DNA of 60,962 nucleotides from Reclinomonas americana ATCC 50394 (Eukaryota). The stretch's first letter is position 1, and each line of letters starts with the position of its first letter. The notes under the pieces were generated by a model. It was not told where the DNA came from. It searched no databases and was given only the letters and a program-made list of their open reading frames with translations. The DNA is taken from assembly GCA_048213135.1 (NCBI GenBank), contig PS015452.1:110753-171714 (forward strand), written 5' to 3'. Positions 120-43,900 of this stretch are shown piece after piece. A program made the position numbers and the translations under genes.

Positions 120-809
120 CCTCTGTTCGCTCCGTGGTCTCTTGTGCGTCGAGCAGGCGTCGGTTGGCATCGCGCAGCTGCGCTGCTGCACTCTCCCTCT
201 CCTGCTCCATTTGGACCACAATGCGTCGCACTTCTTGTCGCCGTCTGCGTGCGAGAGGGAAGGAAGAGTGAGACTCCCGTGTTGCGTCAGGCGCCACCTG
301 CAATACGCAAACACGCACCCGTCCATCTCTCGTCGAGCTTCGTCACGATCTCGCTCCGCAATGAGCAGTCGCTGTCTCCACTCCTCCCACTGTGCGGGAA
401 CGCGAACCTGATCGTGCACCACCGAGCCCACAAACTTGTCGAGTTGTGAGCGCAGATCACTGCCACACAAAAGAACTCCCGGTCAGTGGACTGAGAGACT
501 TGCACGCTCCTCACAAACGCGCACACGCGCGCGCAGGCATACCGATTCTCGCGCGTCAGCTTTTCGATTTGCCCCTCGACCGCCGCACGCCCCTCTTCCA
601 GCTCCTTGTTTTCCGCGCGCACGCGACCCAAGTCAGTCTCGTAGCGACGACGCAGTCTGCGAGGCCACCAGGTTGTGAGACGAAACTCAAGTACACCTGC
701 ATACGTCCTTCAAAGACGGCGAGACGAAACTCGAGCTCGGCACTGGAGAATCGCTGTGCATTCTCCTTGGTCAATTCCGCGATGCGCTGCTCTTGTCGCT
801 CAATCTGCA

Positions 810-860
<51 letters not shown>

Positions 861-2600
861 GGTGCTCCCGTCAGCGACCATTAGTGCGCGTGATAGGCAG
901 ACGAAAATAGAAAACCACACCAACCTGCTTCTGCAGGTTGGTGTATCGGCTCTTTTGTTGCTCCAGGGTGGAGTTCAAGTCAACAATCTGCATCACACAA
1001 ATCAGTCGACACGGACAATGAACGTGAGCGTGCGTGCGAGCGACGTGCCTGTGCCTTGAACTCCTTGGCCTGATTCAGCGCCTCCAGTTCCTTGCGCTGC
1101 AGGCTGGCCACACGATTCGCCAGCATCTCGTACTCCTGCGGCGAGAAATGGCGTAATGAGCACAGGCTCCGCCTGCAAGAAATGACCACAGCAGCCGCAC
1201 ACACCGCATCCTGTCTCGCATGCCGCGATGCTATGGAATCGAGCTCCTCTTGCAGTGCTCGCCGTTGCGATAGCAGGTCTGAGGCGTGCGACCACAAGTC
1301 AATGCGATTGTTCCTTGCCCGGTTACACCTTCCAACACACATACCCTGAATCTGCACATCACGCTGTGCCACTAGTTGTGTTGTCTCCTCCACGCCCTGG
1401 TCCGCAGAGTCTCTGTAGGCCTTGTAGTCTCGCAGCAAACTGCGGATATCTTTGAACACACACGCACACTCTCTCTCTCCGTATCACACACACAGCGACG
1501 CACCTCTCCTTGTCGGCAAGTCGGTCGCGCGTCTCCATAAGCTCTTGTTGCGTGTGCTGTAATCTGAGATGCACCTCCGCCGCCTCCCCACGCGCCATCT
1601 CCACTTGCGCATTGAGCTCTTGGATTGCCTCCTCCAGCTGCCTGCGGTCTTTCCGCAAAAGGTTGCACTCGCGCTCCATGGTCTCTGTTGCTCGCTGGCT
1701 GTTCTCGGTTCTCAGCTCCAGCTGCTGGCCTGCAGCATGCAAAAACAAGGTCTGAGCCAGTGCAAAACCACACGCACACTCTGTCGGCGCCCCAAACGCA
1801 ACATTCCAGCTCTCGATCACGCAGCGATTCCTTCAGCGTGGCGATTTCACTATCGCCAGCCGCCATGCGCTGCCGGTACAGTTCCGTCTCCTCTGTCAAC
1901 ACATCGATGCGGTCCTGCAGATCGTAGCTGCTCACGCACCAGTCAGCCACGCGCTTCTAAATCACGACTCGAATACAATAAGAACGAAACATGGCACCAG
2001 CATCGGCTGTCGGCGTGCGCACCGAGCGCTGCAGCGCGTCGAGCTCCACTCCTCGCGCACTCGCCTGTCGATCTTGCAACGATCGTTGCAGCTTGTCGCG
2101 CAGCTGCTGGTTCTCCTCCACCAGCACATGCAGCTGTCGATCGATCTCCGAGAACTGGTTCTGCGCGAACACGTGTTGGCGCCATGCCTCACACTCCCCC
2201 TCGACAACACTGCACGGGTGTACCGTAGCAAACGCGATCTGGCCCTCCAGCTCCGTGACGTACGCCTCGTAGGCCGCAAGAAGCGGATTCACAATCTCGG
2301 AATCGGTCGTCCACGGTGGCGCAGGCTGATCGCTCAGCGGTGCATCCAGGGAGACTATCGCACGCTCTATGTCAACGACAGCCTGCTCAATCGCGATGTG
2401 CGTCTCTCTCTTTCTCTCACTACGCCTCACCTGACGCACGAGAGGGCACATGCTTCTGCATCTGTGGATGAGCGCGAAGAGCCGCGTCCAGATTGAGTGT
2501 CACTCGTCGACCACCTCCTGCACCCGTGCGCTATGAGTGCCACACACACACAGAGAGAGAATAGAGACACTACACAAGTCGAACTCGCCTCCTGTCGCAT
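120..2600 (-). CDS. Multi-exon coiled-coil protein, CEP89/CCDC123-like; 3' end runs off the left edge of the window
   Basis: ATG at 2600 (MRQEASST). Spliced exons give continuous heptad-rich sequence (VNPLLAAYEAYVTELEGQI...NQFSEIDRQLHVLVEENQQLRDKL...). The PLLxAYE...LVxENxxL motif resembles CEP89 as I recall it. The last visible exon ends at a GTGCGT donor near 120. Confidence 0.7.
811..857. repeat. (CA)n microsatellite inside an intron
   Basis: Direct inspection. Confidence 0.98.
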
Positions 2601-2747: not shown

Positions 2748-5700
2748 ATGAGCGCGCCTGCTCTGAGGCAAGAAAATTGGGACGAGTATGTAACGGTCAG
2801 CGACGTCGATCGCTCCCCACCAAGTACGACGAGGGGAAAGGACGCACTAGGTGTCAATGCACTTGCTATAGTAACGTGCAGCAGAGGGCACTTTGTGGAC
2901 TTTCACAGCAACTGAAAAGCAAAGCCTCTTGAATTCGAACGTACGCGTCGACGTCAAGCTTCAGTGCATGGTGGCTCAGCGACGCGCACTGCTCGCCTTC
3001 CCATCCCTCCGCTTTGGTCCACCTGCTGCACACGGTCACCACGGAGAAGAGAAAGTCGATCAGGAGAAGGACGCGCGACGCTCGCATAGCATCAACATAA
3101 CACGAAGATGAGGTCTTTCCCTCTCCTATTATATCCCCTCCGCTTCACCTCCATCGACCACATTATCGCTCACTCTTACCTCCTCTCCGACAACCGCAGC
3201 GCACAACCACCGGAGTTCGTCGAGGTGATTGTGCCACTCGAGGCCAAACGCCGATCACAGCCTCACGTTCACTCGCCCTCGCCCTCGTCTACCTCGCTCT
3301 CACTGCGACAAGGCGACATGTGTCGCGTGCTTGAGCTTGACGCACGCCGAGCCAGTGTCTCTGTGCAACTGTGGGCTCGTCATCATCAACGCGAGGACGA
3401 GGAGGATGATGACGACGAGGAAGAAGATGACAGGGAAGGCGTGTATCGCTTGCCAGCAGTGGCGGTGCGCGTGGTCGGTGGACCTGCTGGTGTCAAGGTG
3501 AACCTCGTCTTGTGTCATGACGAGTCGTCGTCGACTTCTGTTTGACATGTGGATCGATCGTCAACACGCACACAGAACCTGACACAGCATCCGTTCTGGC
3601 GTGAGCTGGCGACGCGACCGGAGCACCTGCAGACGTGGATGTCACCGGTGTTGGTGAGCAGTGCAATAGCGGGCGGAAGTGGGCGAGCGGATGATGCGGC
3701 GTCGGAGTCGACAGTGGAGTCGGGGCAACTGGTGGCGGTGGTGATGCAGCCGCGACGGCCATCGCTGGTCGCCACCGACGATGACACGTTGCAGGTGTCG
3801 CCGAACAGCAGTGGCAGCGCGCAGGTTCAGCAGCAGCAGACCGGCGGCAGTCTCTCGAACAACAGCGACGAGACCACGGCGACAACGGTGACGACGCCGA
3901 CGCCGACGGTCGCGCACTCGACAGCGATGGAACGCAGCACGGTGCCTGTGGCGACGACTAACGCTGTTGCAGCAGCCTCTGTGTTTGACGCACAACGCGG
4001 TGCGTACGCCAGGCAATCGCCGCCGTCCAGCCCGGGCGCGAACAAGACGAGGGTGGCACAGCTGGAGAGACTCGGTTCGTGCAACCTGTGCAGCGCGAGT
4101 GCGCGCCGCGGGTCACTCACGTGCGATCGCATGCAGTGGGACAGCTGAATATGATGCTCACCAAGTTGCTGGAGGCGCACCCGGGTCTCCACGAACGACT
4201 GCAGGCTGTGGGTTCGCCACTGACACTCGTGCCTCGCTCATCGCCGCTGGCTCCGCTCACACAGCCGCGTTCACAGAACAAAGCATCAAGAGCGGGCGCT
4301 TACCGGCCGCCGCCGGACAGCAGCCGGTCACCGCCGTGCACATTCCACTGATTACGGCCTACGAAGCGCACATTAAGCGTCTGGAGAACACCGTGCAGCT
4401 CACACAGGTGATGTCTCGTGTGTCACTTGACGAAATGTGCGCATCAACTGATTGATGTGTGTGGCAGGCGAGGTTAGCTGACGCCCAGAAAGACCTGTAC
4501 TCGCTGGTGGAGGAGGGCAACGATTTGCGCGAGACACTTACGCTAGAGTCGGAGCTGCGGCGTGCACTCGAACGCCAGCTGCGCACTTCGGGTGCGGAGA
4601 GCGATCAAGCTGACTTGCTGTTGCGTCGAGACTTGCCGGAGTGGTCGTGATGCTGTCACTCACGCGTGGACAGGCTCGAGCTGCACTCGCGGAACGCCAC
4701 ATTGACCGAGGAAGTGGAGCTGCTGAGATTAAAGGATCGTGAGTGGCAGAAGCGAGAGGCGCACCTCAGGGGCGAGCTGGAAGCTGCCGGGAGGAAAGGT
4801 ACACTTCTTTTTTCGAAAATACTCAGCACTTTGCACACGCAGGCTGACCCTGTTTGTCTTTGAAGACAAGGAGAACACGGTGCGGTGGGCGGAAGCAAGG
4901 CGTGACTTCATGGCCGTGGACAAGGACTTGGGGGAGGCGGCGGAGAAGATTGAGCAGATGAAGTCGTTGTGCCAGCGCAAGGACGCCGACTTGACGGAGC
5001 GTGATCGGCAAATCGAGCTGGCTCACCAGGGTGCGCAAGAGGCTCGGCAGCGCCAGACTGTTGCCGAAACGCTGGTGAAGGACAAGGAAGCGTTGCGTGT
5101 GTTCGACACGGGAATGTGGTGCTTGCTCCGTCGTTGACGACATGGTGCACAGCATGCTGAAGGAGTTGAGGTCGCAACTGGAGCAGATGCGAGCACTGGT
5201 GGACCGTCGAGAGGAGCAGCTTGACGAGCGCGAAGGCAAGATACAAAGTTGCAACGATGACGACCTTGGCGTGCGCTGTTTTGTTTCTTGCTCACACACA
5301 CGTCACAGATCTTGTTGCACAACAGCTGTACCTCGAGCAAATCGCCTTGCAGCACAAGGAGACGATCGCCGCTCGCGTTGAGGTTGCGTACCTTCCTCGT
5401 GCTACGTACACGATATGCATTAGTTGACTGTGCCGCCGGCAGGAGGTGCAACGCTTGCAGCAGGAGAACGAGTCGAAGCAGGAAATCGAGCGAGATCTAA
5501 CTCTGGAACTGAGTGGCGCTCAGCGACGTGTTCGTTTTCGATAGACGCCACACTGTTCTTCCCACATCTACGTCGCTCACATGCGGTTATCAAACAGTGT
5601 GAAGACCTGGAGACGACCTTGCGTGCCGAGCAAGAGAGACTGCGTGACGCGCTAAAGGATGTTGCGTACTAGCGACGTGTGCTTGCGTGTTGGAGGTTAG

Positions 5701-9546: not shown

Positions 9547-10081
9547 GAGCGTGTGTTTGTGAGAGAGACAGAGACAGTTTCAATGTGCGCTCGCCCGCCT
9601 TTGCATTGTCTGTGTTTGCGTCTCTCTTTGCGTGTCTTTGTTTGTGTTAGAGTGTACGTGTGTGTGTGTGTGTGTCTCACGCGTAGACGCGAGCAACTGC
9701 AATCATGGGCTGCGCACAGAGCTGCATGAAGGACAAGTCACTGGGAGTTGCGTGCACTGACACGCGCACGCACATGAAAGTCACTTGCGAGCACACACAT
9801 GCGCGCGCATTGAGAGAGTGCGAGAGAGCACTGTTGTGTGTGCATGCATGGCGAGTTGTGCATTGAGATGATGATGGTTGATTACACGTGCGTGCGCACT
9901 ATATGTGCACACACGCGCGCGCTCTCCTCTCACAGTCGCACTCTCTCTCTCTCTCTCTTACGCGTGCGTTGTGCGTCGCGTCATCATGCACCACCGAGAG
10001 AGGAGTTGCGGCAGTTGATCATCATGACACACACTCACCGTTTGCCGCGCACAGTACGAGTCGGAGAAGGGCGAGGTGCCG

Positions 10082-12115
10082 ATGCGAGGCATGGGCGCAT
10101 CTTCGTCGCCCACTGCGGATAGTGGATACGCGCCACCGCGCTCGCCGGGTAGTGGTGTGCTCTCGCCGGGCAAGGCGGCTGGAGCGGCGGCCGCAGCAGC
10201 GGCGGCTGGTGTCACACCGCAGGGCGACCGGCTGTCGCTGATGCATCACCGCGATGCGGATGAGAGCGATGATAGCGATGGAGAGACGGCCTCCAAGCCG
10301 GTGCAGTCGTCTTCGTCTACGCCGCCGGCACCGTCGCGGCCACCGGCGAGGGCGGCAGCGAGGGCGGCGGCAGCGGCGGCGTCGTCGTTGTCGGGGGCGG
10401 CGTCGGTGGAGTCGGGCGAGTCGTCCATGCTGGATCAGCGCATTGAGAAGAGGCCGCAGTCGCCCGACGCGCCACCGGTGGTGAGTTGATACACAACAAC
10501 GAGGGTATAACTGTGTGTGCGTTCGCACACATCCACTGACTCGTCTTCCTTGCAGCCGCGATTGGCGTTTGGCCATTGGCCACCACCAGAGGGTCCGGTG
10601 ACGCGCGGTCGGCCGCAGTTTGAGGCGAGGCTGTTGGCGGTGCGCGAGGCCATGAGCACATCCACCACGCGTTCGCTCGGCAACGTGCAGAACGCTGTCA
10701 ACGCACTGTCGGCATTCATCCGCACCGAGCCGCGCAGCACCGAACTCACCAACCAAGGTGCGCCACGCTCTCCTCTTACTTCGCCTCTCCTCTCGCACTT
10801 TCTCATCGGTGTGCTGTCAGGCGTCGTTTTCCTGCGACGACTGCTCGGCATTTTGGACAAGGTGTACGCCGACTGCTACCGACGCGAGCCACTGGCGATG
10901 CCCGACAGTGACTTGCAGTTTGTGTATGCGCGCGCGCTGGAGTTGACTGTGGATCTGTTTATGCAAAAGACGTGTGCGCACGCCGAGACCGTTCACCGCG
11001 GCCTGCCCGATGTGCCCGAGTTGGAGGCGTTTGCGTGCGACAAGCTGTTTGAGGACTACACGCGAAACGTGGCGCTGCGCGGACAGTTGCTGGCGCTCTA
11101 CTCGTCCGTGATGAATCTGAGTGGTGTGTCCAGCTTGCGGAGATAATTTCCCCCATGACTCGCCTTTCTCACTCACTCACTGCTGCGTGCTTCCTCACGC
11201 TGTAGAGGCACAATCACTCAAACTGAATGAGGATCGCTTCGTCACACTCGTCATGGATTCGCTGGACAATTTCGTGGAGGACTCGTCGTGCTGCGGGTGG
11301 GCGTGCTACATTATCGCGATGCAAGCGCTCTTTTTGCGACCCGAAGTGGAGGCCACATACGCCGTCAAGGGCATTCCGCGAAGGCTTGCCGAGATCATTG
11401 ATCGTGCGCTGCTCACCAACACACCATTCCCGGCGGTGCAATCGATTAGCGCCATTCTGTACCTGGTCAAGAAGAGCGGTGTGTGAGAGGGAGAAACAGA
11501 TTCATCTGCTGTGCTTTCTCGTGTGACTGAAAGAATGCGACTGTCTCCTGGTGACCCGCAGAACGCCTGAAGAGGCTGGCGCTGGAGACGGGCATTGTGG
11601 AGAAGCTGGATTCGTGCATGGCGCTCTTCACCAACAACCAGCAGCTGGAGCAAAAGGCCGATCAGCTGCGGCGATTCCTCAGTGCGGGTGCCGGCGGCGC
11701 TTCTCGCTCGCTCGCCACGTGCGTACAATTCTCCTTGTGTGATCGACTTGAGCGTTTTTTGCACTCACTCCTCTCGTGCTGGTAACAGTGCGCCGGCATC
11801 ACCGTCGCCGCCAGTCAGCAATGGTGGAACGCCGACGTCCTCGTCGGGATTGCAAGCGGGCGGCTCACTATCACGACGCACCAACTCGGATGTGTCGTCG
11901 GACACGGAGAGTGATTCGCGTGGCGTGAGCAGCTCGGGTGTGAAGCTGCGAGTCGGTGGCGGTGGGCGGTCGACCAAGAGTTGAGTGGTGGTGGGGGGTG
12001 GGGGAAAGAAGCAGGGTTGGCATTCCTCTGTCTCACATGACTGTATGCAGGCAACGATGGGTACGCACCACCGACGCTGCCGTCGTCGGCCGTGAGGAGT
12101 GGTGGAGCGCGCTAA
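10082..12115 (+). CDS. Hypothetical protein: helical core flanked by Ser/Pro/Ala low-complexity tails; start uncertain
   Basis: ORF pieces 10076-10489, 10517-11146, 11121-11486 and 11597-11984 join through GT-AG introns; final exon ends at TAA 12115. Confidence 0.65.
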
Positions 12116-12251: not shown

Positions 12252-13313
12252 TCACATCAGCAGCGGAAGTGCGGGGATGACTCGCTGGCCGCGATGCTCG
12301 CGAAACATGCGCATCGCAAACTGGCCGGCCGCAGACGCACGGAACTCGTCGACCAGGGCACGGAACTCGGGCGACAGCTCGTCCAGGGCTGGCAACTTGG
12401 CACCGTAGCCTGCACGCGCGCGCAAGAGTGAGGTGAGTGGGTTTTGTGGCCAGACAGTGCGGTGCGAAACAATGCTGACCTTCTTCTGGGGTCGGCAGCA
12501 GGAGTGGCGACAGCATGCTTGCGGCGCTCAGGTCAGCCGCCGTGAAGCGATCGCCGACCAGGTACTGTCGTCCGTCGGCGAGCAGCTCGTCGATGAATGC
12601 CACTTCCTGTGCAATTGCTCATGCCGGTGAGGAGAGAGAGAAGGTCTCGACAAGTCGTGTCTGCGCACCTCACGCAGCACGGCCAGCGAATCGCGAGCAT
12701 GTTCCTCGTCGATGCGGAGACCGCGAGAGATAGCCTTTCGCAGCAGTGGTTTGAACAGGCGTGCGAAGGCAGACTGCACGCGCGGGAAGTTGCTGCGGAT
12801 CATGCGTCCAAACATGTCGCTGTCCGCCAGCACATGCAGATACGCCACTCGACGCGTATGCGGACCTATGCGCTCGCCAAAGCGCTGCTCCAGCTCCACA
12901 ATGCGATCGGTGAACTCGGCGGGGTACAACGAGTTTGACTCGTCGTCGAGCGCGTACCGATCGGACGCCCACTGCGCGATGTCGGACGAGTCGTGCAGCA
13001 CTTGTCGCTGGCGCGGACTCCTCGATCGGATCACCAGACAGGGCGTGGAGGCTTTGCTGGAGGTGCCGTCGACATTGGTCTTGCGAGCAAAGCGCGTGGC
13101 ACACAGCACCGGCAGTGCGTGAAACAGCGGCATGTAGACGCGTTCTCTGTACGGAATACCGTAGTGATCGAGAGCCCACCGTGCCTTCTCCTGTGATGCG
13201 GATGAGAACAAGGCGCTGGAGGGAGTGCCATTCATTGTCGACAGCGCAACGTTGTAATGAGAAAAACGAATGGTGATCAACTCGAGGGTGGGTTCGTCTT
13301 CGCTCGCCGTCAT
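12252..13313 (-). CDS. Glutathione S-transferase-fold protein (paralog 1), 3 introns
   Basis: LITIRFSHYN|EKARWALD N-terminal motif, TPCLV, VLHDSSDIAQW and YLVGDRFTAADL; ends PALPLLM*. Confidence 0.9.
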
Positions 13314-19081: not shown

Positions 19082-22000
19082 ATGTCATCCATGCCCATCA
19101 ATGTGCGTTTGCCAGTCACACTCCGGTCTCTCTGGAGAGAGACTCGCACTCTCACAGCGGCCTCTTGCGATGAATCCGTCTGGTGGCGCAGTGGCCGCCG
19201 CGTCACAGCAAAAGACGGTCTCTATGAACGCGCGCTCTTGTGTCTGTATGAAAGTGCAGTTTGCTCATGTGTGTATCTCTCTCCCTCTCTGCCTCTCCCT
19301 CTCTCTTTCTTTCTCTCTGTGTACGTGCGTGCGTATCGATCGCAGATGTGGAAACGCATTCACAACGCGCTCATCTTGTCGTCGACGATTGGTCGGGTCA
19401 GATTACCAACAACCACAGCAACGAGTTGAGTGCGCGATGACCTTCTCTCCCTTCTCTCTCCCCTCCCTCTCTCTCCCCTTTCTCTCTGTCTCTTCTCTCC
19501 CCTCCCTTCCACATCATCTTGACTGATTTCTTCGATTTTGATCATGTCTGATCTTCCGGCACACAGATGATGAGGAGGAAGAAGACGATGAGGAGGAGGA
19601 TGATGAGGAGGAGAAGGCCAGTGACAGTGAAGTCGAGGAGCATCCACATGACTACTCTGTGGACGATGAGGACGATGATGGCGAAGTGCCGGCAATGATC
19701 ACGGATGATCATCATCGGGAGCTGGATGCGATTGCCGATGAGGGAGTGGCGTTGCAGCGGGAGCTGGAACGAGTTGCGTGCACTGTTTGCTGTAGGAGTG
19801 CTTGCTCTCCTCGCTTACTCACACACTACTTTCGAGTATGTAGTGGTGGGCCTGCTGCAGCTGCGCAGAGCCTGTGGGTCACGACACGATTCGTGCCGCC
19901 GTCTATGTCGATTTCTTCACCAAGCTGCTCATGAAGAGCGATGAGCATGCGGCGCTCTTGTCGGAGGAGAAGATTCGCGCCTCCATCCAGGTTCATGCGC
20001 GCACTCGTTCCTCTTCTTCTTTCTTTTCCGCAAGATGACTGACTCGTGCTGGCAGTTTGAGTGGCGACGCGATCGGCACGGCGCACGCAACATCACTCTC
20101 GATCAGTTCCTCGAGTCGGCCCATCAGTTTGTGGAGGGTCTGTACGCGCCCCTTTTTCCATTGTCGATGTGTTGTGTTCACGGTATCGTGTCACAGAGTG
20201 GCACCCTGGTGTACCGCCGAGTGAGGCGCGACGATGTGCCCGTCGCTTGCTTGAACGAGCCTTTCCCGACCACGAGCGTCGTGTCCGTCAACACAATCGT
20301 GCGTCGCACATCCTTCCCCCACCCTATCTCTTTGTTGTCCTCACTCACCTCGCCCAGAGCGCGCCAACACGGCACGACCACACCCCGAGATGCGTCCGTG
20401 GACTCCCGAGTTTGACCCCAACTCGGGCGCGTGGAAGCTGCGAGCGTCGCCGACGGATCTCACCCGCTCACTCATCACTCGCCGCCTGTCGCCACCGCAC
20501 ATGGAAAGGGAGGGTGGCGGCTCGCCGTCGTCTCCCGGCTCCCCACCATTCACACCCTCGTCGACCGTATCCTCGTTGCCGCCACCGGCGCCTCTGCGTG
20601 GCGTGTCACCGGGCACCGTCGAACGTCTGTGGTTTGTGCCGCAGCCGTCGCCGCTTCCGCCACCCCTGCCGCCACAGCAGCTGGCTCCGCTGAAGCCCGT
20701 GGTCGCTACGTTTGAGGTGGTTCTGGCGCCAGACATGACGGCGCAGCAACAGAAGCTCAAAGCGGTGCCCGGCAAGGTGCAACGGCGTGCCTCTGTGGAC
20801 ACAGTCACATTGTCGTCTGGACCGCGGTGGCCGTCGGTGGTCGACAGTTTTGCTGTGCTGAAGGATCCAGTGCAGGCGTGGGAAGTTGCGCAATCGTTCA
20901 TGGCGCACGCGTGTGTGATCACATTGCACTCATCCGTGCCTGGACAGGGTGCTCGATTCGCCACGTCGCCGCTCGTCGACAAGCTGGCAAAACCCAAGGG
21001 CCGCTATCATTACCTCGAGTTTAACGAGAACTGTTGCGCACACTCCACCGCTACGCAACGCCGGACAGCTGCTGATGCTGACGTGTGTGTTCCCCCAATT
21101 GTAGCACGGCGCCAGGAGTCAGCTGCAGAACCGCGAATTGTGGCTCAACCACGTGCAGCAGGTCTGTTGCCTTCATTCTTCTTCATCCTTCGTGTATCTC
21201 TGTGTATTTACCCGCATTCCCCTACCAGCTGTCGATGAAGCACCTCCCGCCCCCATGCAGTCGCCTCCACCACAACAGCCTCCGCCACCAATGCCGCAAC
21301 CAGTGGCGAGTCCGTCGTCGCCAATGGCGGCACACAGTGGAAGCGGTAACGGTTCTCCGACGCGCTTGCGGCAAGTGCTCTTTGCAGGGCCGACCTCGCC
21401 CGAGGTCGCCCCCACGGCGGGACCGCGTGCGCTGCCGGCCACGCTACCGTCGCGGCGTGCATCGATACCAATGCCGACCACGTTCTTTCACGATGAAGCG
21501 CTACTGCAGCCGCCACCAGAAGATCCCAAGCAGGCCACCCGCCAGGCGTACGCCAAGCTCGCCAAGGCACGTGAGGAGAAACGCAACAGCAAGGGCTCCA
21601 GTTCTCCGACGTGCGTCGTCAGTCCCTGCACTCCGCCTCACACATGTGCTCCTTTGTTCTTTCACTCTGACTGACTGCCACATGCGTGCCACCAGCGCGG
21701 CGCCGCACCAGCATGCAAAGTCACTCGGCAACGGCATGTGGGCACTCGATGTGCAGCACTTGCCTGCCGACCCCAACCGCCACGCCGACGAGTTGCTGTC
21801 CACGGAGCGGCAGTGGAATGCGCAGCATGTGGCCTCGTTTCCGGCGCATTTGCCGACGTATCTCAGTCCAGAGGGTACGCTGCCAGTCGTCGTCGGACAG
21901 CAGAGATGCCGTTCTTCTCACACTCGACACAGGCGACAAGATCGAGCCGCGCGCACAATCTGCCTTGTCACCACTTTCACCGGCCGCCGCCGAGATTGAG

Positions 22001-29009: not shown

Positions 29010-31835
29010 TTACTCTGCCAACACATCGACGCCATCGTCCTCGTCGAGATCACCCGCGTCCCCTTCCGGCTCCTCCAGGAAGGAGTTCGGCGGCACCTCA
29101 AACAAGCGCAGCGACGGCTTTTGCGGCTCCTTCAGCAGCAAGTACTTGCCAGGCGGCAGGCGCAGGAATCGGTCAACAAAGAACTGCGACACGACACGGG
29201 CCAATCGATTCAGCAACATAACGCGCACAAAGAGGGAGGGGTAAGAGAGAGGTTTCACAGTACCTGCAGAATGGCAAACGAGTTCTTCAAGTTCAGCGAC
29301 ATTTGTGTGGCGAACTTGATTGGGGTTGTGGAGATGACGCCAAGCGCCACATGATTTGCCGAGTCCTTCATGTTGGTGCGTGTCACATAACTGTGCCATC
29401 ACAGCATTAGCGTCGAGTTCTCACGCAGCGACAACAGCAAGGGGAGCGCATTACAAGGAGACGCAACGCAATCTTCATGACCTCGGCGCCGGCAATAAAG
29501 GCCTCCAATGACGTGCGGGCCAAACGGTACGCATTGTTCTTCAGCTCCGTGATCAGCACATTGCCTGATCAACACAACCCCGTGAGCACAACAATGTTGC
29601 AACAGGAGCGAAAGTATACAGGGAGGGAAGGGAACAAAAGGTGGGTCTCAGTCACTATTCTGAGAAGATCGAATTTTCCTCATCTACGAGATCGGGATTA
29701 GCTTGGCGATCGTATCATCGTCGACCCCCCTGCCTGCCATGATTGCCACCACCACCACCACCACTACAATCGCTCACCTGGCGACGCATCCAGATCCTTG
29801 CGGTAGGTGATGCCGGTGGCCTTGGGGTCGAATTCTTGCAGTGCCTGCGCACGCATGCACCGTCAGAGCATGTACATCTCACACACTCGCACGCACGTAT
29901 GCGAAACGCACCCGAATGATGCAGTGAGCCTTGGCGCCACCCTCCACTGGAATGGTGCCGTCGACGGAACACCGCACAACAATCTTGGCGCTCGACGAAA
30001 TGTCGAATGTGCGGTACTTGAAGACGGTGCTGGAGGTCTCCGATGCATCGCTCGCAAACGGAACCGGATCCAGCTCTGTCGCTTCGTCCTGAGAAATAAT
30101 TGGTGAGCCTCGCGGGAGCGAAAAAAAGATTGGTAACACTCTCTGGGCCGCACTCAACTCTTCTGACGCCCTGCTGGCACAATTCGGCTTGAATGCGCAC
30201 GGCCTCGGCCGCCAGCGCACTGGCGCTGTTGACCAATTCACGTGCATCGTCTTCCGGCGGCGCTGCCGCTGTCTCGCTGATTACCGGAGCGTCTGCGCAA
30301 GTGCCCAGATGTGAGAGTCCGGCGACGCACACTCACTCGAGACGGAGAAATGGACGCACCAAAGCTCGCATAATCACGGACGTCCAGGAACAGCTTGTCG
30401 TCGATGCGATTGATGATAATGTCGAACGAGTTGAGCGAGCGTGGTACCGCCATCAAAGCAGAGATGACCGCGTCGGTGGCAAACACATTTCCCAGATTCT
30501 CCTCGGCCATGCGCAGCAGAATGGGATCATCCGAGGTAGTGACCTGTGTGTGTGTGTGTGCGTGTGAGCGCCAGCAGGACGACACCACCCTCAACTATAC
30601 ACACACACACACCTTGTGGAAGTGCACAGCGGTGGGCTGCAGTGCCACCGGGCGACGCACGTTGATGCTGTCAAAGAAGGCGGTGTCGACAGGTGCCAGT
30701 TGTCCAATCTCCTTGCTGCACGACATCATCAGTCCTCCACTCCCACGCTCCCACTTGCACACACACAGAAACGCAACAGAGTTTCGATCGCGGGCGGCGC
30801 ATTGACGGTCAACTTGGTGAGGGCGGCAAACTGGAACGTATCCTTGGGGATCCAATCCGAGCGAGCCTCCACAGAAGGCCGCTTGAGACCGCGCGCTCCC
30901 ACATCCGGGTTGCGCATGTAGCGACCACCACCAGCACCGCCACGGAACGAACCACCGCGACCACCCTACGTAGAGCCCGAGGAGTGAGACACGCACACGC
31001 ACACACGCACGAACGCAACCCATCGACGCAACTCGCGATCCTGCAGCACCCGAACCACGACCTGCGCACCAGCCTCATCAGTGCCCTCTCCTCCCACATA
31101 CGCTCTCACTCCACACTCACCACGCGCGCCACTCGATCCCGGCTCCACCTCCGCCCCCTGCTGTCCCCCGCCGCGACCGCCACCACGTGCACCCCAGCCT
31201 CCACCACGCGCGGGACCCGACGGACCACCACCACCACCACCACCACGTCCACCACCGCGTCCTCCGCGGAAGCCACCACGGTCGCCACCACGATCACCAC
31301 CGCGGTCGCCGCCACGGTCGCCGCCACGATCACCGCCCATCGATCCACCCAGTGAGCCGAGTGGCTTGGTCGGCGGCTTCACCTCCACCATGTTGAACTG
31401 CTCCTCTGCAGCCGCCGGTTGGAAGAACGACGGCGCCAGTGCCGTAGTCTCACTCGGTCGCTCACGCTGACCGAACGGACGAGCTGAACAATGCGCGTGT
31501 GTGTTAGCAAGACAACAACAACATGTGCACATGTTGGACATGCCCACTCCTCCCTCTCTTTGCACTGTCTCTCTCTCTCTCTCACCATCGCGGCGACGAT
31601 CAAACGGCCGTGTGTTGGTAAAGTCGGAGATCTTGCCGACGCGCACAAACTTGTCAAACGGCTGCAGTGGGAGACCACTCAACACCGAGGCCACAGGCGC
31701 CGGAAGTGTGCTTGATGCTGATGCAGCTGCTGCTCCTACTACTGATGATGATGATGATGCTCCAATGGCAGCTGAGGACAACACCGGGCCCCATCCATCG
31801 GGATTCTCCACAATCAAAGGCAACACAAATGACAT
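29010..31835 (-). CDS. EIF3D: Eukaryotic translation initiation factor 3 subunit D
   Basis: ENPDGWGP, PLQPFDKFVRVGKISDFT, VTTSDDPILL, VFATDAVISALM, SFDIII...KLFLDVRD, ITELKNNAYRLAR, LPPGKYLLLKEPQKPSLRLFEVP and an acidic tail. Confidence 0.95.
29643..29728 (-). ncRNA. Putative intronic box C/D snoRNA in an unusually long eIF3d intron
   Basis: Minus strand: terminal stem GGGTC/GACCC, box C-like ACGATGA, D' CCGA, C'-like AGATGA, box D CTGA. Host intron is about 210 nt versus the usual 60-80 nt. Confidence 0.65.
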
Positions 31836-35100: not shown

Positions 35101-38100
35101 GTCATGGCAGCGCAAATCATCAACGGCATCTCTCTGGTCAAGGTCGGTGGCGGTGATGCTTTCCGTGAACGTGTGTCACGGATGCTGACTCGATTCCGGG
35201 TTTGCCTGCACAGAATGTTCGCCAGTGTGCTCAGGCCGTTCCGTTTGTGAAGAATCTCTTGGCGTTCCTCGTTCAGCTGCACCAGCAAATGCTGAACGGC
35301 AAGGCTCCTGGTTCGCCGCATGTCACGCGCTCTCCCTCTTCTGTCACCGCTGTTCTCATTATTTTCCGTCCTCGCGTTCAGACCGTGCTGATGTGTTGCT
35401 GGAGGTGCTGGCCGGCGAGTGCTTCTCGTTTGTGGACCTGCTGCTGGCGGAGCGCGAAGTGCTGAACAGTCCGATTGCCGCATCGAGTTGCGCTCGAGAT
35501 GTTTGCGTCCTTCGTTCTGGTGGCTTTTTCATGCTGACACTCTTGTGTCTGTGATGCAGGCAATGAGCAGCTGAGCGAGTTGTGGTCGCTGTTGGAGCAG
35601 CTGGAAAACGAATTCCGCCACGACACGTCTTCTGTCGACAAGAGTCTCTGTGGTGTCTCCGCCAATCTGCGGTACCGGCTGTACGGTCTCACGCTGTCGG
35701 CCGATCAAGTGGTGGCACAGATCCGTGCAGCATGCGCCGACTCGGCCACCGAGGAAGAGAAGACAAACTTGCTCGTCTCGCTGCAGTGCACCACCATCAA
35801 CAACCTGGCACTTGCACGCCTCGTGCTGGATGTTGCGTGGTGGTGAGCAGTGTTTTTTCGCATCCACTCGCGTCACTGACGGCGTGCGCTGCAGGAGGCC
35901 AAGGACGACGATGTGTTGTCGCTGATGCTGCAGCTCGCCGAGGATCACGCGGCCGACCGCTCATCGCCATTCAAATCCGAGGTTCTGCGGTCGCTCACGG
36001 CCATGGTCGTCAGTGCACTGCTCGGTGCCGTGTCGCCCGAGTTGCACTCCACGGCGATCGCCAGCATCAGCAGCCGTCTGCTCAAGTCATTGGTGCGCTG
36101 CGCTCCTTCCTGCCCCGTCCAGCACCGCCTCTCATCATTTCTCTCTCTTCTTCATGGTGTCCAGTCTGCGTCCTCTTCGCGCACACCTGTGCAGCAGCGC
36201 CGCCTGACCATATCGCTGTGCCCGCTGTTCGATGCGCTCTCGTCGTTCGTGTTGGCGCAGTTGCCGGCACTCTCCGACCTGCTTCCGTCGCCCACAGTAG
36301 TGCGTGTGTGTGTCTGTCGCGTGTGAGTTGTTGTTGTTTTGCTCACTCTCGCTTGCTGTCTCTGCGTGCAGTTTCCGTACCGACCGGCTGCCGTCGATGC
36401 GGCCGATGTACAGCTCTCTTGCGGTCTGCTCAGCACGTTGGTGCAGGTGTACGCGCTGATTGCGGACCAAGATGTGGCGGCGCCAGAGCTGACAGGGTGC
36501 GTGTGGAGCTGGTGTGTGAGTAGTTCCGCCGCTGAGTGCATGACGTGTTTGTGCGTGTGTTCTGTGCAGCACGGCGGAGCGTATTTTGCCCATTGCCATT
36601 TTCTCGCTGCCGCTCTCTGTGCTGGCCAAACTGTGGAATTGCATTCTTGTTGGCTCGTGCGTGCTGCTGCTGGCCAACCGTGGACGCGGCAGTTCGGACC
36701 TATCTGCCCCAGCAGCGTGCGCCGCGGCTCTCAGGTGCGTCTTGTATTGCACGACAACACAGATCAGCGCATTGTATTCACATGTGTGACGCTGCGCAGC
36801 GCGGTGCACACTGTCTTCGAGCGCCTCGTGTCGTACGACGCCGAGGAGGGTGAGGTGGCAGAGAACCGTGTGCAGATTCTCGCACTTTTGCAGGCGGTAC
36901 TTGTGCGCCGGTTGCTCGCCAGTGGCGTGGCCGTGGAAAGCGATGGTGCGCAGTGTCATCTTTTTTCTGTCTTGTGTGTTCATTACGTCTTTGACTCACA
37001 TGTGGTGGTATGGCAACTCAGCCGCCGCTGGAACGCAGCGAGTGACGCGGCTGAACCCGTCGTGGTCACTGGCCTCGTCGCTCTCGCAGGGCGGTGGTTT
37101 CACGGACGCCGATCGTGCCGCTGTTTCGCATCAATTGCTGCAACTGGTTGAGCTGACGGTGCCACTGGCTCACGTTCCGGTGCGTTGTTGTCTCTTACAC
37201 CTCTCCTCTCCGCCATTGTTCATATGACTGTGCTGATGATGCTTGTCGTGTGCGCTGAGGGCAGTCGTTGCACGGATACTTGGCGGTGCTGTGGAGCCTG
37301 ACGTTTGAGTTCCACGGACACGAGCGGCTGATCTTGGCAATTCAGCGTCTCAACTCGTCCACGAGCGACAGCCTGCTGCAACTCTACGCCGTGGCAGCCG
37401 TTAGCACAAGCTCTTCCGAATCCGTTGCGTGTGTCCTCCTCCTCCTCATCTCACCGTTTGGTGGTTAATGCTCATATCGCACGCAGAGCACGGTGATTGA
37501 TGCTCTTGCACGCCTCATGACGGAGACTGGAGAGCAGTTGCTGTCGGAGGCCCGCTCGTTTCGTCGCAACGACGGCTCTTCTGTGATTGTGGTTGGTGCT
37601 GATTTCGTGTGTGATTGTGTGCACGCTGATTAGAGGCTCGGTGTCGGCGCCTGGCGAGAATCTGTTGATGGAGTTGGTGTGGTTGCTGGACTTGCTGGCG
37701 GTGTCTCCTACGCGACGCCTGCACTCGGTGGCATCGGTCACCGACCCTGCATTCATGGCCCTCCTTGCCGATGTTGCGTGTGTGTGTGTGCACGTGGTGG
37801 GCGCTCGCACTCTCACTCACCCGAGTTGTACATGCAGCTTGCACGATGCGAGACTGTGCGGCAGAGTGTTGCCGAGGGCTGCCTCTCGCTCCTGCTCAAG
37901 ATGCTGCCGCTGTACGGACCGCGCGATGTACAATCGTGGGATGTTGCGTCGTTTTGTGTGTGTTCGTACTCGTGGTTGTGTCACTCCTCCGCGTTGCTCA
38001 CGATCCCCGGTCGTCTCGCAGCGCGACATTGTGTGCGAATTCGTCAACCAAGCTAATGAGTCATCGGAAGCCGGAGTGGAGATTGCTCTCCGTGAGCACG

Positions 38101-40458
38101 AGGAGAACGCACGAGAGCGCGATGGCAAGATTCTCGACATTCACGAACGCACCGTGGTGCAGTTTGAGCGCCCCAATCGGTCACTCAGCATGTTGCAGTC
38201 GGCGCTGAAGCGCCACGGCAAGACTCCAGTGTCGCGGGTTGCGTTGACGTCGTGCTGATCAGCCACACCTACATTGTCGTTGCTCACTTGCACGTGCAGA
38301 GTATCCCCTCGGCGGTCTCCGCCGCTGCCGGAGCGCACATGCATCCGGAGAAGTTGTGTGTTGTCTTCCCATTATTTTTTGCAATGTGGACTGTATTTGA
38401 CAATTGAGCTCTGCAGGAAAAAGGCCGCAGTGCGTGCCACCTCACGTGCCGTGCGACTCATTCAGAGTCTGTGCTCGGCGTCGCCGAATTGGAGGTTTGG
38501 CGTGAGCGTTGCTAGTCTGTTGAAGTAGTTGATGGTCACTGACGCTGTTTTCCCTCTGCGCGCAGTGACTACTTCCTCAGTCGCGTGATCGGCAGCGACA
38601 TGCATGTGATTGGTACGTGTCGCGTTTGATGTCGCACGTCGTGCAGTTAATGACACAATGTCTCCGTAGACTGCCAGCGCGACCTCATTCTCCGCTCATT
38701 GTCGGGTTCGTTGATTCCCCTTTCATGGCACTCTTCTTGGTATGTTAGATGTTGACTGTCTCACACCAACACAGATCCGTGGCATGTAGTCCGCGGCGAC
38801 ACCGTCAACGGACTTGTCATTGTGAGTCCGCACCGCGGTCTGGTGTGCCCTGAACCAACAAACACCAAGGTTTGTGTGTGTGTTTGTGTTTGTGTGTGGC
38901 GCCACACTGTCTCATGGTGCTCCGCCAGATCCCGGCCGCGGTGGTGCACGAGGGTGCCAAGCTGACCGGTGGGCCACTGCGTGTGCAATGCGGTCCGAGC
39001 ACCATCAGCCGCCTCAGTGCCAGTGTCGCCGCTCTGGTGCAGGCGCCCGAGTCGCTCGGCATGGAAGGTGCGCGATTTGTGTGTGTGTGTGTGTGCACGG
39101 TTATATGGATGAGAAAAGAGTCACTGATCATCGTTTTTTAAATCGTACACAACAGCCTTGCAACTGGAGTCGCTGCTGCAGCAGGCCAAGATGATTGCAT
39201 CCAACGCAGTGTCGGCTGAGTGCCTGCCGTCGGCGCCCGAGTACACCATCTCCGAGGGTGGTCGTCGCGTCGAGTTTGCTGGCGAGTTGCGTTTACCATT
39301 CCACGTGTGTGCGCACTTGTGCTTTAGCCAGCTCTTGATATTCAAAATGGTCGCGTCATTGGCAAATGTAGGTTCCCCAACTCGCTGCTCGCACCGGCGT
39401 TTGTGGGCGACGTGCGCAGCGGCGAAACGCCATTTTACTTTGAGATGGACGTGTACTTTTGTGGTGACGGGTTAGTTTTTTGTGTGCGTGGAGGCGCTTT
39501 GTGTAAGCAGTATGGTAACAACTTCATGACGCGCCGTGCAGTGAGTCGATTCCGACCTTCCTCAAGGTGCCGGAGATCGATCCGGCAGCACCACCGATTT
39601 GGGAACAGCGTGCCTTCCATCGCACGGTCGATGTCGCTCGACGACCTGGCAGCGAGTGGTGCATTGTGGATCGCGACTGGATGACCAAGTACCTGGAGTA
39701 CGTCGACATTGACAAGCCAGTGGAGGAGGAAGAGCCGCCGGCCAGTGCGTTCATTGTCGAGCTTTCCTATCCCGTTGCCTTCCACCCATTTGTTATCGTC
39801 TGCGCCGCAGATCAATGGCCTGGCAACTTCAACTCGACGACTCTGCTGGTGGACCCGTCGGATCCTGGACGGCTGAAACCCGATCTGGAGATCGGCAAGC
39901 AGGTGGTCGAGGTACCGCGTGCCGTGTGGCGCAAGTTGGTTGACTGGTGCGGCTCGCACGACACGCACACTTCTTCTTCTTCTTCTTCGTCTTCTGCATG
40001 CTGACTGAGGAGAGCACACCACAGGAAACTGGTCGAAGGTCCGGCAATCATCCGCGAGATTGTGCAGACACAGTCGGGCGACATGTGCATCGATCTCTTC
40101 CCGCTACTGATCCCGTGTGGCATGTTCCGCTTTGATGGCATGCTGGAGCTGCGCTGGTCGCAGTGGTCGGTGGTGGAGGCCGTCAAGACCGAGGTGCGGT
40201 TGCCTTGTGCTGAGTGTCCGCTGAGCTGTGCGCAATTGTGCACTGAAGATCAATGTTGGTGGGGGAGCAGATTGCCAGCATGTTCTTGCCGCAGCCAAAG
40301 CGCTCGGATCAGCTGCGCCTGTGGTCATTCATCGGCTCTGAGCCTCTCTGGCTTCTCCGCCACGACAAGAAGACTCTCGGTGACTACCGTGTGCAGCCGG
40401 AGCACAGTTTGGTGGTGGAAGTGCAGGCGGCCAATGGATCGTGGCCCATCAAGGAACC

Positions 40459-40545
<87 letters not shown>

Positions 40546-40849: not shown

Positions 40850-40936
<87 letters not shown>

Positions 40937-43900
40937 GTCGCCCACAAAGCACACAGACACTCACTGTCGTGTTTTTTGTTGCTCTGTAGACTCGTCGGTG
41001 CAAAAGGAGGCCGACATGGTTGCCGCAGCCGCCGCCGCTGCAGCAGCAGCATCAGCTGGAGAGGGATCGTCTGGTGCCGCTGCCAGTGGTGCTGGCGAAA
41101 GCGCAGAGGGAGCAGAGGGCGAACCGAAGGATCTCGGACCAGAGTTGGTGGACAAGTTGCGTGGTGTCTGCATCGTCGAAGGATTGGCGCAGGGTTTGGC
41201 GGCCGCTCACTCACATCATGCGCTGCAGTGTGCCTCCACGTGTTGCGTTTGGCATCTGCCGGCCGGGTGGTTTGACTGCTGCGGTCGAGGTCATCACGTT
41301 GCCGCTGCCAGTCGACACGCGTCTCGGCTGTGGCTACTCGCCAGTCGATCATCGTGTGTTCTTTACCGTGAATCACCGAGGTTTGTTGGATCATGCTCTG
41401 TCGGTCGTCACTGTGGGAGCGTGAATTGAATGACATGCGGTGTGCAGTGGTCTCATCCTACCAAGTGTGGGATGGCCCCTACTGTGGTTGCCTCGCGCTG
41501 GAGACGGAACAAGTCAAGGTCCGCATGGTGGATGTGGATAGCGCCGATCTGGGCCCGCAAGTGTCCAAGATTCTGCTGTGGAGTGCGCCGGATCTGTACC
41601 AGTTTTGTTCTTTTCCCCTCCTACCACCTTCGATCTCCTTCGTTGTATAGCAAACTCACTCTTTATCTCCGCAGCACGCTGATGTCGAACTTTGAGCGGC
41701 GTCAGTACGGCATCGACTGCGAGGAGAAGCTGCTGCGCTCGTTTGTCAATGTGCTGAAGGAGCACCAGTCGCTGGCCGGTTTGTTGTGCGCCGGCTGAGT
41801 TTATTGTGTCGTGCCACAGTGCGGCGCTGACTTTTGCGCTGCAGAGTTGGAAGCCCTTCTCCCGCAAGTTTTATCCGCGGTGCACACACTGTACGCGGAG
41901 CACGGTCGTGCGGAGATGGGCACGTCGTTCCTGCTCAGCGCCGAGCGTCGCACCCTGCGTGGTTTGTCGTGATGCCGCGCGTATGCCAGGATTGGTTTTG
42001 TTATCGCACTAACACCACTCTTTTCTGCGTGCCAGAATCCAAGCGCCGAGTGTCGCTGATGGTGGAATTGTGTGGTGAACTTGTGGTCAAGTCGTCCACG
42101 CTGGAGAACCTGTCCATGCGCCAGGCGTTGGAGCTCAGCCGCCTCATGGCGTCGGTGCGTATGCGCGCACATGGGGAAGCGAGTCGAGCAACATCGTGAG
42201 ACTGACCTGTTTGTGTGTAGTTGGAAGACAAGAAAGCGGTCCGTCACCTGCTGGAGACCATTGGTTCCAAGGGTGAATTTGCTCGTGCATAATGCGCGCT
42301 TCCTGTCTGCCCGCCACCTGACGTATTGCTCTTTGTTGCAGGCGAAGCGGTTGCCGTATCTCTGCTTAACGAGGGTCCTGTGGCCGCCGACATGGAGCAG
42401 CCGTTGGTGACTCTGCTCAGCACCGAGGTGTGTGTGTGTTGTGTGCACTGGCGATGTCGTGCGTCGTTGTCTGTGACTCATTTGCTTCTGGTGGTACTGT
42501 GCAGACCCTGTTGCATTCCTTCCTGCCGAAACCACCGGTAGCACCCGCGGCCCCTGCGGCTGGCGCGCGATCGTCGTTGGTGAGGAGAGCGTGCCACAAT
42601 GTGTCACTCCTCTTTTCTTCTTCGAAGTTGCTCAACGTCGTACACAGGAATTGGTGGCTCTGCGCGAGCTCATGCGCCGCGCACTGGCACAATTGCGCGA
42701 GGACGCTTCGCAGGCACCGAGTGGCACCCAGTTGCTGGAGGCATTTGGACTGCAGGTGCACGAAGAGAACGCTGACTCTGAGAAACCGCGGCCAGCTGCC
42801 GCAGGCAGCGCGGCGGGAGCTGCGAGTGCCTCTGCAGCCAGTGCCGATGCGCGGTCACTCGGACAAGTGCAATCACTGCCGCCACTGTTCCATGCCGGCA
42901 ATCCGGCGCTGCTCGCATCGCTGCATCAGGCCGCGGCTGGTGAGAGAGAGATTTTCTTTGGGGGGAAGGGTATGTATCGTATTGTCACTGACTTGATTGT
43001 TCCTTGCAGCTCCACGAGAGAGTGCACCACGTCCGGAGCCAGTCCAACGAGGTGCGCGTGTTGAGACGCATCACGGACATGCCACCTTTGTAGTCGACAT
43101 GGAGGGTTGTGCTGGCTTCTCGCATGCGGTCGTGCCGCTGCAGAAGCTGCGGTGGGCGGTGCACTTGCCGAACGGATCGGTCAGTGTGGATTCCACTGTG
43201 GGCTGACTTGTTTTTGTACTTGCTGATGTGTTGTGCTTGCCCTACAGTCCGATCTGCGAGTGCCTCTGGCCAACGAGGCAGCACTGCAAGCGCCGGCTGA
43301 AGGCCAAGCGTCGGGTGTGTAGTTTTTCGTTGGCGTGTTTTCTTTGTATGTTTGTGTATCGGCACTGACTGTTGCGGGGGGAACAAAGGCTCCGCGCACT
43401 CGCACACGTGCACATTGGTGCCGCCAGTCGACTGGAAAGGTGCGTCTATGGTTTCTTGTCGGTGCTCCATCCGGTGGATTTGCTCATTTTGCTTCTCTTC
43501 CTTGCACAGACACTGCGCTGCGCCTTGCACGCGTCATGTACAACTTGTTCCGCGCCGAGGTGGTTGCCAAGGGTGCTCTGTCTGTTGATGTGCTGGAGTT
43601 CCTGGCCAGCATTCTGGCCATGGTGCCTCTGCGTGCCATCACAATTGTACCACCATCGCAGTTACGTACGCGCAACTCACTCGTTCGTGGGTTCTTGTTG
43701 CTTACTCGCATGTTTGCACGCGCACACACAGGGATAGCGTCGATTTGCGCGTTTTGCAGATTATTGAGATGCATGCCGAGTCAGTTCACCTGTCGCGCGC
43801 GCGCCAGGCCAAGTACTTCCACACATTCCAGGAGGACACCAGTTGCGTTCTCTTCGAAAAGGTACCTGTATCTGGGCGCCACTGCAGTTCGCCAACACCT

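Follow-up and report, generated by a model that had tools for sequence, protein, structure and literature searches.

A predicted class of GTT-starting introns with donor signals one base deeper than usual in Reclinomonas americana DNA

Introduction

By analogy, the closest known case to the donors described here is the shifted register of U1 pairing at unusual human donors (Roca and Krainer 2009), in which, according to two accounts (PMC4856993, PMC9311317), all base pairs move by one position and the cut stays at GU. The present study concerns a 60,962-nucleotide stretch of Reclinomonas americana ATCC 50394 DNA (contig PS015452.1, positions 110,753 to 171,714 of the forward strand; the whole stretch is called the window), for which an original prediction had listed five sites (positions 5248, 11980, 30158, 38353 and 59415) where an intron seems to begin with a canonical donor displaced by an inserted T. 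In what follows a slash marks the exon-intron boundary, H is any base other than G, and the displaced ("slid") donors are written H/GTTxyGT as against G/GTxyGT for canonical donors. We consider it probable, though far from certain, that the flagged sites form a minority within a large class of GT-AG introns whose signal lies one base deeper (H/GTTxyGT type) and pairs with U1 out of register.

Like the H/GTT donors of the window, the human shifted-register donors are described as poor in the canonical register and without G at positions -1 and +5, and the model oligonucleotide ACA/GUCAAGUAUA (PMC4856993) has the same layout as H/GUUxyGU. In the window the third base of slid donors is almost always T, which would leave only one unpaired position, and with a U1 of the human type the main motif GTTGCGT would pair very weakly, unlike the human case. 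Human shifted-register donors are rare, amounting to some tens of sites, whereas slid donors account for 57 of the 205 introns predicted here (28%) and have a sharp consensus of their own, GTTGCGT.

Other described systems resemble these donors in part. Bulge and asymmetric-loop registers (Roca et al. 2012; Tan et al. 2016) allow one U1 to read a displaced consensus; according to PMC4856993 they include a +2/+3 bulge, and the validated non-canonical registers of human together make up 1.5% of donors. Bulge registers keep the exon base at -1 opposite its usual partner, whereas slid donors of the window are nearly devoid of G at -1. In Entamoeba the canonical donor consensus has T at +3, such as GTTTGT. 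Donors of this type begin with GTT like the flagged sites; unlike them they have G at +5 and the ordinary register, and the 24 GTTTGT, GTTCGT and GTTGGT donors of the window itself form a group separate from the flagged sites. Introner-type transposon families resemble the class in having many introns with one fixed unusual end; introners share bodies, whereas the 204 window introns compared show short weak matches alone. Full-text literature searches returned no description of a GTTGCGT-type donor consensus among the titles and abstracts of the matches listed.

Results and Discussion

Enrichment of slid donors at predicted exon ends

The five motifs of the original prediction are all present at its positions and none has G at -1: A/GTTGAGT at 11980-11986 (plus strand) and 30152-30158 (minus strand), C/GTTACGT at 59415, A/GTTGTGTGT at 38353 and A/GTTGCA at 5248. 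The heptamer GTTGAGT as such is not enriched (nine sites, both strands counted, where shuffled sequence would give 10.18) and serves as a predicted donor at three of its nine sites. Since the bare heptamer is unremarkable, the question is one of enrichment at exon ends. GTTGCG occurs at 88 sites in the window, 65 of them in sense and 21 in antisense orientation relative to the predicted genes.

Exon ends were predicted with a two-strand Viterbi gene finder. It combined a periodic model of coding sequence, for which the window itself supplied the training data, with bare GT and AG, a weak acceptor and branch term and a flat length prior. The gene finder was used without a donor model to avoid circularity, and both strands were modelled because single-strand finders merged genes and confused strands. 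A total of 188 introns were predicted by this donor-blind model, and donor expectations were computed from all 8430 GT sites. GTTGCG donors were found at 29 of the 188 introns against 1.96 expected (P=7e-25), and GTTxyGT donors other than GTTGCG and without G at +5 at seven against 1.9 expected (P=0.003). The otherwise equal xyGT pattern was not enriched when +3 was A (2 against 1.07 expected), C (4 against 2.63) or G (2 against 4.04). Across five penalty settings, one of which omitted the acceptor term, 26-32 GTTGCG donors and 6-7 other slid donors were obtained, the latter against 1.5-2.3 expected. The seven non-GCG donors are located at 730 and 1990 (GTTTCGT), 11980 (GTTGAGT), 41602 (GTTTTGT), 43661 and 59415 (GTTACGT) and 51432 (GTTGTGT), preceded by A in five cases and by T and C in one each.

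Analysis of the 29 GTTGCG donors revealed G at -1 in only one. A codon artefact as their source was ruled out, as all three phases are present (12, 8 and 9 donors) and the introns have lengths like those of canonical ones (median 65 against 70). Among the remaining donor-blind GTT donors, 11 of those with G at -1 have G at +5 only and none has G at +6 only; among those without G at -1 the corresponding numbers are four and eight, and the association is significant (Fisher P=0.0013). The GTT donor class as a whole is strongly supported in silico. Its non-GCG members are few in the gene models, yet they are significantly enriched and behave as a register shift predicts, and the GTTGAGT, GTTACGT and GTTGTGT variants seem to belong to the out-of-register class.

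Comparison of the two donor logos

Two position matrices and a background were fitted as a mixture to the donors so predicted, and fitting alternated with gene finding until convergence. The resulting donor-aware model predicted 205 introns, which simple rules divide into 131 with G at +5 (canonical), 44 GTTGCG, 13 other GTTxyGT and 17 others. G at -1 is present in 105 of the 131 canonical donors, two of the 44 GTTGCG donors and none of the 13 other GTTxyGT donors. The 13 consist of GTTGAGT (3), GTTGTGT (3), GTTTCGT (3), GTTACGT (2), GTTAAGT (1) and GTTTTGT (1). Among the 17 others, G at -1 is found in 15; the two exceptions are GTTGCC and GTTGCA. The commonest single donor hexamer is of the H/GTTGCGT type, found for example at 29467 and 30777 on the minus strand and at 49202, 5661 and 33223 on the plus strand. 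Class 0 (canonical) and class 1 (GTT) received mixture weights of 70% and 29%, respectively, with the following frequencies.

Exon side: class 0, -2 A.40, T.26, C.19, G.15 and -1 G.82; class 1, -1 A.42, T.32, C.22, G.04
Fixed start: class 0, GT; class 1, GTT
Next position: class 0, +3 G.61, T.19, A.14; class 1, +4 G.86
Next position: class 0, +4 C.44, A.26, T.26; class 1, +5 C.84
Next position: class 0, +5 G.89; class 1, +6 G.94
Next position: class 0, +6 T.62; class 1, +7 T.75

The expectation that the GTT logo would match the canonical logo moved by one base was borne out for the predicted introns. The summed Jensen-Shannon divergence between the logos (positions -2 to +8 of the GTT class) is 0.29 bits when slid by one base, compared with 3.42 unslid and 3.85 when slid by two. 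The composition at -1 in the GTT class resembles that at -2 in the canonical class, and all seven x-y pairs occurring in slid donors are within the nine commonest canonical x-y pairs. G at +5 in GTT introns, the pattern that the original prediction had named as contrary to it, is not that of the flagged group, which has G at +6 and lacks G at -1; it does occur in another GTT subgroup, the 24 donors in the ordinary register.

The canonical donors are themselves unusual, with a near-obligate G at -1 (105 of 131), C most frequent at +4 (.44) and, at +3, more T (.19) than A (.14). This composition hints at a U1 whose 5' end is not of the human type.

Donors of the eIF3d gene

Homology gives a view of donor use in the eIF3d gene, whose reference features are as follows.

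29010-31835, minus strand: eIF3d gene, Pfam match
30089..30158, minus strand: intron of 70 nucleotides, donor A/GTTGAGTGC, branch-like CTCAC, CAG end; placed by frame and homology
29391..29467, minus strand: intron of the main class for reference, donor C/GTTGCGTCT; the sole junction keeping frame and homology

Reading by hand, together with one further short intron from the donor-aware model, gave 11 introns for this gene. The canonical donors recognised by eye all have G at -1 (7/7: G/GTGAGA, G/GTGAGT, G/GTGTGT, G/GTGCGT twice, G/GTGAGC and G/GTACTG). The GTT donors are T/GTTGCGT at 30777, A/GTTGAGT at 30158 and C/GTTGCGT at 29467, found by eye, and A/GTTGCGT at 31032 from the donor-aware model. 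Junctions were scored against a profile of 35 full-length eIF3d homologues, considering every in-frame GT-AG option at most 45 bases from the boundary. In the conserved part of eIF3d none of these options outscored the modelled junction. The 30158 junction is the best of 12 in-frame options; the next loses 3.9 bits, and a GTCAGA donor nine bases upstream loses 8.3 bits. The 30777 junction is the best of 10 (next option -7.1 bits) and the 29467 junction the best of five, all four alternatives losing at least 27.9 bits. The reading frame switches across the 30158 intron and both flanking exons match eIF3d. Use of the GTTGAGT donor at 30158, where the original prediction had taken the frame to be fixed, is thus well supported by the frame change and the homologue profile. 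It is the only one of the 13 non-GCG slid donors backed by homology.

The glycine/arginine-rich part of this gene (30966-31120, minus strand) was read by eye as a single 155-base intron; the donor-aware model later split it into two short introns around a micro-exon of 29 bases (31033-31061).

Predicted introns with non-GCG donors

The remaining flagged sites, and the other slid donors found by the two models, are listed below.

11980..12050, plus strand: predicted intron of 71 nucleotides, donor A/GTTGAGTGG, branch-like CTCAC, CAG end; donor-blind and donor-aware models
59415..59687, plus strand: predicted intron, donor C/GTTACGTCT, acceptor uncertain (59518, 59573 or 59687); donor-blind model
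38353..38416, plus strand: predicted intron of 64 nucleotides in the HECT-type gene, donor A/GTTGTGTGT (38353) or T/GTGTGTTGT (38356)
5248..5308, plus strand: candidate intron of 61 nucleotides in a coiled-coil gene, A/GTTGCAACG to CACAG, read by eye; rival C/GTGCGCTGT, 5271-5325
43661..43737, plus strand: predicted intron of 77 nucleotides, donor A/GTTACGTAC; both models agree, length not a multiple of three
51432..51490, plus strand: predicted intron of 59 nucleotides, donor A/GTTGTGTTG, TAG end; both models, best alternative log-odds -3.6
41602..41674, plus strand: predicted intron of 73 nucleotides, donor A/GTTTTGTTC, the slid form of GTTTGT; both models
657..730, minus strand: predicted intron of 74 nucleotides, donor A/GTTTCGTCT, the slid form of GTTCGT; both models
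1928..1990, minus strand: predicted intron of 63 nucleotides, donor T/GTTTCGTTC; both models, stop codon if retained
37558..37633, plus strand: predicted intron of 76 nucleotides, donor C/GTTTCGTCG; donor-aware model only, the donor-blind model picked 37563
60305..60387, plus strand: predicted intron of 83 nucleotides, donor C/GTTAAGTGT; donor-aware model only, the donor-blind model picked 60299
19425..19566, plus strand: doubtful intron of 142 nucleotides near a gene start, donor A/GTTGAGTGC; donor-aware model, length atypical
9833..10054, plus strand: doubtful intron of 222 nucleotides near a gene start, donor T/GTTGTGTGT; donor-aware model, length atypical

The 11980 intron is the last of a predicted gene at about 9726-12115. 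Its motif contains an in-frame TGA, so that retention would give an immediate stop. The in-frame alternatives G/GTGTGAA (-42) and G/GTGGGCG (-18) have low scores, and no homologue was found for the 21-residue tail that splicing would add; alternatively, there may be no intron and the gene may end at the TGA. At 59415 no canonical alternative donor exists in phase, and on read-through the open frame continues in low-complexity, un-protein-like sequence. Donor use at 11980 and 59415 is plausible on the gene models.

The donor choice is ambiguous at 38353 and 5248. The two possible donors at 38353 and 38356 lie three bases apart, are both in phase 2 and have a common CAG acceptor; the donor-blind model took 38356, whose canonical log-odds is 1.3, and the donor-aware model 38353. 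An intron from 5248 would end at the first CAG, 14 nucleotides past the CTCAC branch, a CAG that the rival at 5271 must skip, and both models picked C/GTGCGC at 5271. Alternatives are found in the two long introns as well: the donor-blind model picked A/GTGCGCGAT at 19430 in place of 19425, and T/GTGTGTG lies three bases downstream of 9833. Thus, of the five sites named by the original prediction as used, T-displaced donors, the one at 30158 stands on homology, 11980 and 59415 can be defended, and 38353 and 5248 are left with two candidates each.

These uncertainties bear on the explanation that the non-GCG sites form no class at all, being chance GTs or misplaced boundaries whose true donors are weak canonical neighbours, or places without an intron. 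It is consistent with the lack of enrichment of bare GTTGAGT, six of whose nine sites are not predicted donors, with the in-phase rivals at 38353 and 5248, with the atypical lengths at 19425 and 9833 and with the stop codon within the 11980 motif. We regard it as quite improbable. The enrichment seen in the donor-blind model is confined to T at +3 and stable over settings, and the 30158 junction is backed by homology. The 13 non-GCG slid sites have canonical log-odds of -2.2 to -6.8, and no in-frame alternative in their slots reaches the lower quartile of canonical scores (1.76). Finally, 13 of 13 lack G at -1, yet among the 17 remaining donors that do not have G at +5 it is present in 15.

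Intron ends, bodies and paralogous positions

All 13 non-GCG slid introns start with GT, ten ending in CAG and three in TAG, and 42 of the 44 GTTGCG introns end in CAG or TAG; GT and AG were demanded by the gene model and a pyrimidine before AG was weakly favoured. A branch-like CTNAY near the acceptor is found in 12 of the 13 non-GCG slid, 35 of the 44 GTTGCG and 97 of the 131 canonical introns (background 19% of random 40-nucleotide stretches), counts that are not independent as CTNAY was favoured by the model. Retention of any of the 13 non-GCG introns would cause a frameshift or a stop. U12-type introns have long conserved donors of the RTATCCTT type, and no such donor was found among the GTT donors listed. 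Boundaries placed one base further on at both ends (TT...AGG, giving the same messenger RNA) were rejected as an explanation for the class in general, as they need G after AG, which is present in only 15 of 44 and 3 of 13 cases.

When 204 intron bodies were compared all against all, only 35 weak short pairs were obtained, scattered across the classes (best E 4e-6 over 45 bases), without a class-specific cluster. The bodies are therefore unrelated, as the original prediction had stated, and a transposon-derived family is not supported.

Two tandem gene pairs, both with conserved intron positions, allow paralogous introns to be compared.

46331-48055 and 48214-49800, plus strand: tandem pair of MFS/sugar-transporter-like genes, Pfam matches
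49202..49266, plus strand: intron of the main class for reference, second tandem transporter gene, donor A/GTTGCGTCG
12252-13313 and 13493-14506, minus strand: tandem pair of GST-like genes, Pfam matches

In the transporters a G/GTACGG intron (47462) and the A/GTTGCGT intron (49202) interrupt the matching codon boundary in phase 0. In the GST-like paralogues a C/GTTGCGC donor is common to both.

Proposed U1 pairing at slid donors

The slid-register reading proposes that the U1 small nuclear ribonucleoprotein would pair with H/GTT donors one position off register. Intron G+1 would fill the slot usually held by exon G-1, U+2 would face the base that usually pairs with G+1, and U+3 to U+7 would pair as +2 to +6 usually do. 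Later steps (U6, U5, Prp8) would cut at the sole GU present, one base upstream of the point indicated by the U1 helix. With one unpaired position, the slid helix might tolerate near-best-pairing cores alone, and this pairing threshold is proposed as the reason why GTTGCGT dominates and GTTGAGT, GTTACGT, GTTGTGT and GTTTCGT are rare. The narrowness of the slid class and the better core match of canonical donors without G at -1 (3.04 against 2.64 of four positions) both fit such a threshold. From these patterns we infer actual splicing at the slid donors and the role of U1.

Duplex energies were computed with the human-type U1 5' end given in PMC4856993, from which the U1 of the source organism may differ. 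Canonical donors favoured the canonical register in 117 of 130 cases (mean -6.2 kcal/mol). For GTTGCG donors the +1 slid register had the lowest energy in 18 of 44 and the canonical register in two of 44, and for non-GCG slid donors in seven and none of 13, respectively (mean -2.38 kcal/mol). An Rfam scan of the window found no small nuclear RNA, U1 included.

The same donors could be drawn with U1 in its ordinary register and one U of GUU bulged, since GU-U-xyGU amounts to GUxyGU plus an extra U, and PMC4856993 and PMC9311317 document bulge registers in human cells. Such a bulge at +2/+3 keeps -1 facing C, so that G would be expected there as in 105 of the 131 canonical donors, whereas it is seen in two of 44, none of 13 and, donor-blind, one of 29 slid donors. 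The energy model gave a canonical-plus-bulge duplex in one of the 44 GTTGCG donors and in none of the 13 others. As -1 is composed like canonical -2 and almost never is G, the slid register is favoured over a bulged U, and we consider the bulge very improbable.

Weighing of the slid-register reading

Several results weigh against a second register of the same reader. GCG occupies 44 of the 57 slid donors compared with 37 of the 131 canonical ones (P=4.5e-10), so the slid class is far narrower, and given this dominance the data would be described almost equally well by a single sharp consensus accompanied by some degenerate variants. The non-GCG cases are few: seven in the donor-blind model, an excess of about five sites, and 13 in the donor-aware model, two of them atypically long and the counts of that model being partly shaped by the fitted logos, from which the donor-blind figures are free. 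Junctions outside eIF3d depend on a gene finder that took its training data from these same 61 kb, and at two of the five flagged sites the donor choice is ambiguous. The 24 GTT donors with G at +5 (GTTTGT, GTTCGT, GTTGGT), 20 of them with G at -1, follow the ordinary register and limit the reading further. GTTGCGT hardly pairs with human-type U1 (mean -1.06 kcal/mol against -6.2 for canonical donors), and GTTGAGT pairs with it better although it is about 15 times rarer. As GTTGCGT is commonest and C is preferred at canonical +4, it would follow that the U1 of this organism differs from the human one there or that another component sets the preference; with C at canonical +4 and slid +5, the U1 5' end may have changed to pair with GUGCGU.

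Part of this evidence would suit a dedicated or variant reader of one new consensus, GTTGCGT, the non-GCG sites being degenerate matches and some of them false calls. Such a reader could be, for instance, a second U1 carrying A in place of the C that usually faces G+1; it would pair perfectly with GUUGCGU. The GCG dominance, the almost absent pairing of GTTGCGT with human-type U1 and the small non-GCG excess (7 against 1.9) agree with such a reader, as does the identity of the two leftover weak donors, GTTGCA and GTTGCC. Against it, the variants at +4 and +5 equal the canonical variants at +3 and +4 in roughly the same order, all columns match after a one-base slide, as a single reader in two registers predicts, and paralogous introns change class at one shared position. 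A variant U1 would, moreover, still sit one position off with respect to the cut; the reader would differ and the geometry would be equal. On balance a dedicated reader appears unlikely, though it deserves to be kept in mind.

Overall, the register-shift reading has partial support from the models and falls short of proof, because the class is dominated by one motif and two of the cited sites are ambiguous. The claim that a general shift is to be preferred over one novel consensus holds as far as the slid logos, the composition at -1 and the non-GCG enrichment go; it is weakened by the share of GCG and by there being just 13 non-GCG donors.

Other features of the window

The window has a G+C content of about 59%, dense gene packing and many short introns. 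Domains were assigned by comparing Pfam with 206 open frames of at least 130 amino acids; few families were obtained from open frames because exons are short. In addition to the genes given above, the following features were found.

Open frame in the window: mitochondrial carrier, Pfam match
Open frame in the window: WD40 protein, Pfam match
Open frame in the window: Roc GTPase domain, Pfam match
32142-46289, plus strand: large HECT-type gene with a DUSP domain, Pfam match and predicted chain of 67 exons, about 3000 amino acids
26473-26547 and 26832-26906, plus strand: pair of phenylalanine transfer RNA (tRNA-Phe) genes, anticodon GAA, Rfam, identical scores

A PDB search with the mitochondrial-carrier frame covered the read-through of a canonical intron, not of a GTT intron, and was uninformative on donor use; for the WD40 frame, protein comparison yielded generic repeat proteins alone. 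The 67-exon chain has a UBA-like start, read by eye only, a HECT-like end and a run of 84 N bases (40668-40751); the chain may represent a single giant E3 ligase gene, or else several genes joined by the gene model. The two tRNA-Phe genes, 359 bases apart in an intergenic stretch, were the sole matches of the Rfam scan. Long (GT)n or (CA)n runs lie inside introns 805-924 (minus strand), 40461-40627 (plus strand) and 30544-30612 (minus strand), offering many in-phase GT or AG options, so that the boundaries there are uncertain.

Identity searches were made with a 61-residue eIF3d exon as the query. No sequence above 57-58% identity to it was found in a 5.8-billion-protein collection, a 1.84-billion-representative library or metagenome contigs. 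The metagenome scan gave 24 loci, all at 57% identity or less, and hence no close relative for comparing intron positions. Nor did the protein collections yield a transcript-derived protein from this organism or a near relative, and a search for sequencing runs with positions 25001-35000 of the window listed none. Judged from these identities, the source organism seems to represent a poorly sampled lineage.

Significance

Splice-site prediction and annotation presume one register between the U1 signal and the cut. If two registers are comparably frequent, gene finders with one logo would mis-annotate about a quarter of the introns. The non-GCG variants help to decide whether the donors reflect a single odd motif or one reader working in a second register; few as they are, they favour the latter here. 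It is conceivable, though we would put it somewhat below an even chance, that more than a quarter of the introns in this undersampled eukaryote are defined by a 5' signal read one nucleotide off the cleavage site. If this is true, the organism would offer a natural system in which U1 reading is separated from the site cut by the spliceosome, and a natural experiment on the choice of cleavage site after U1 departure, with the same helix followed by cuts one base apart according to the availability of GU. A mechanism known as a human curiosity alone would then have become a main mode of splice-site recognition.

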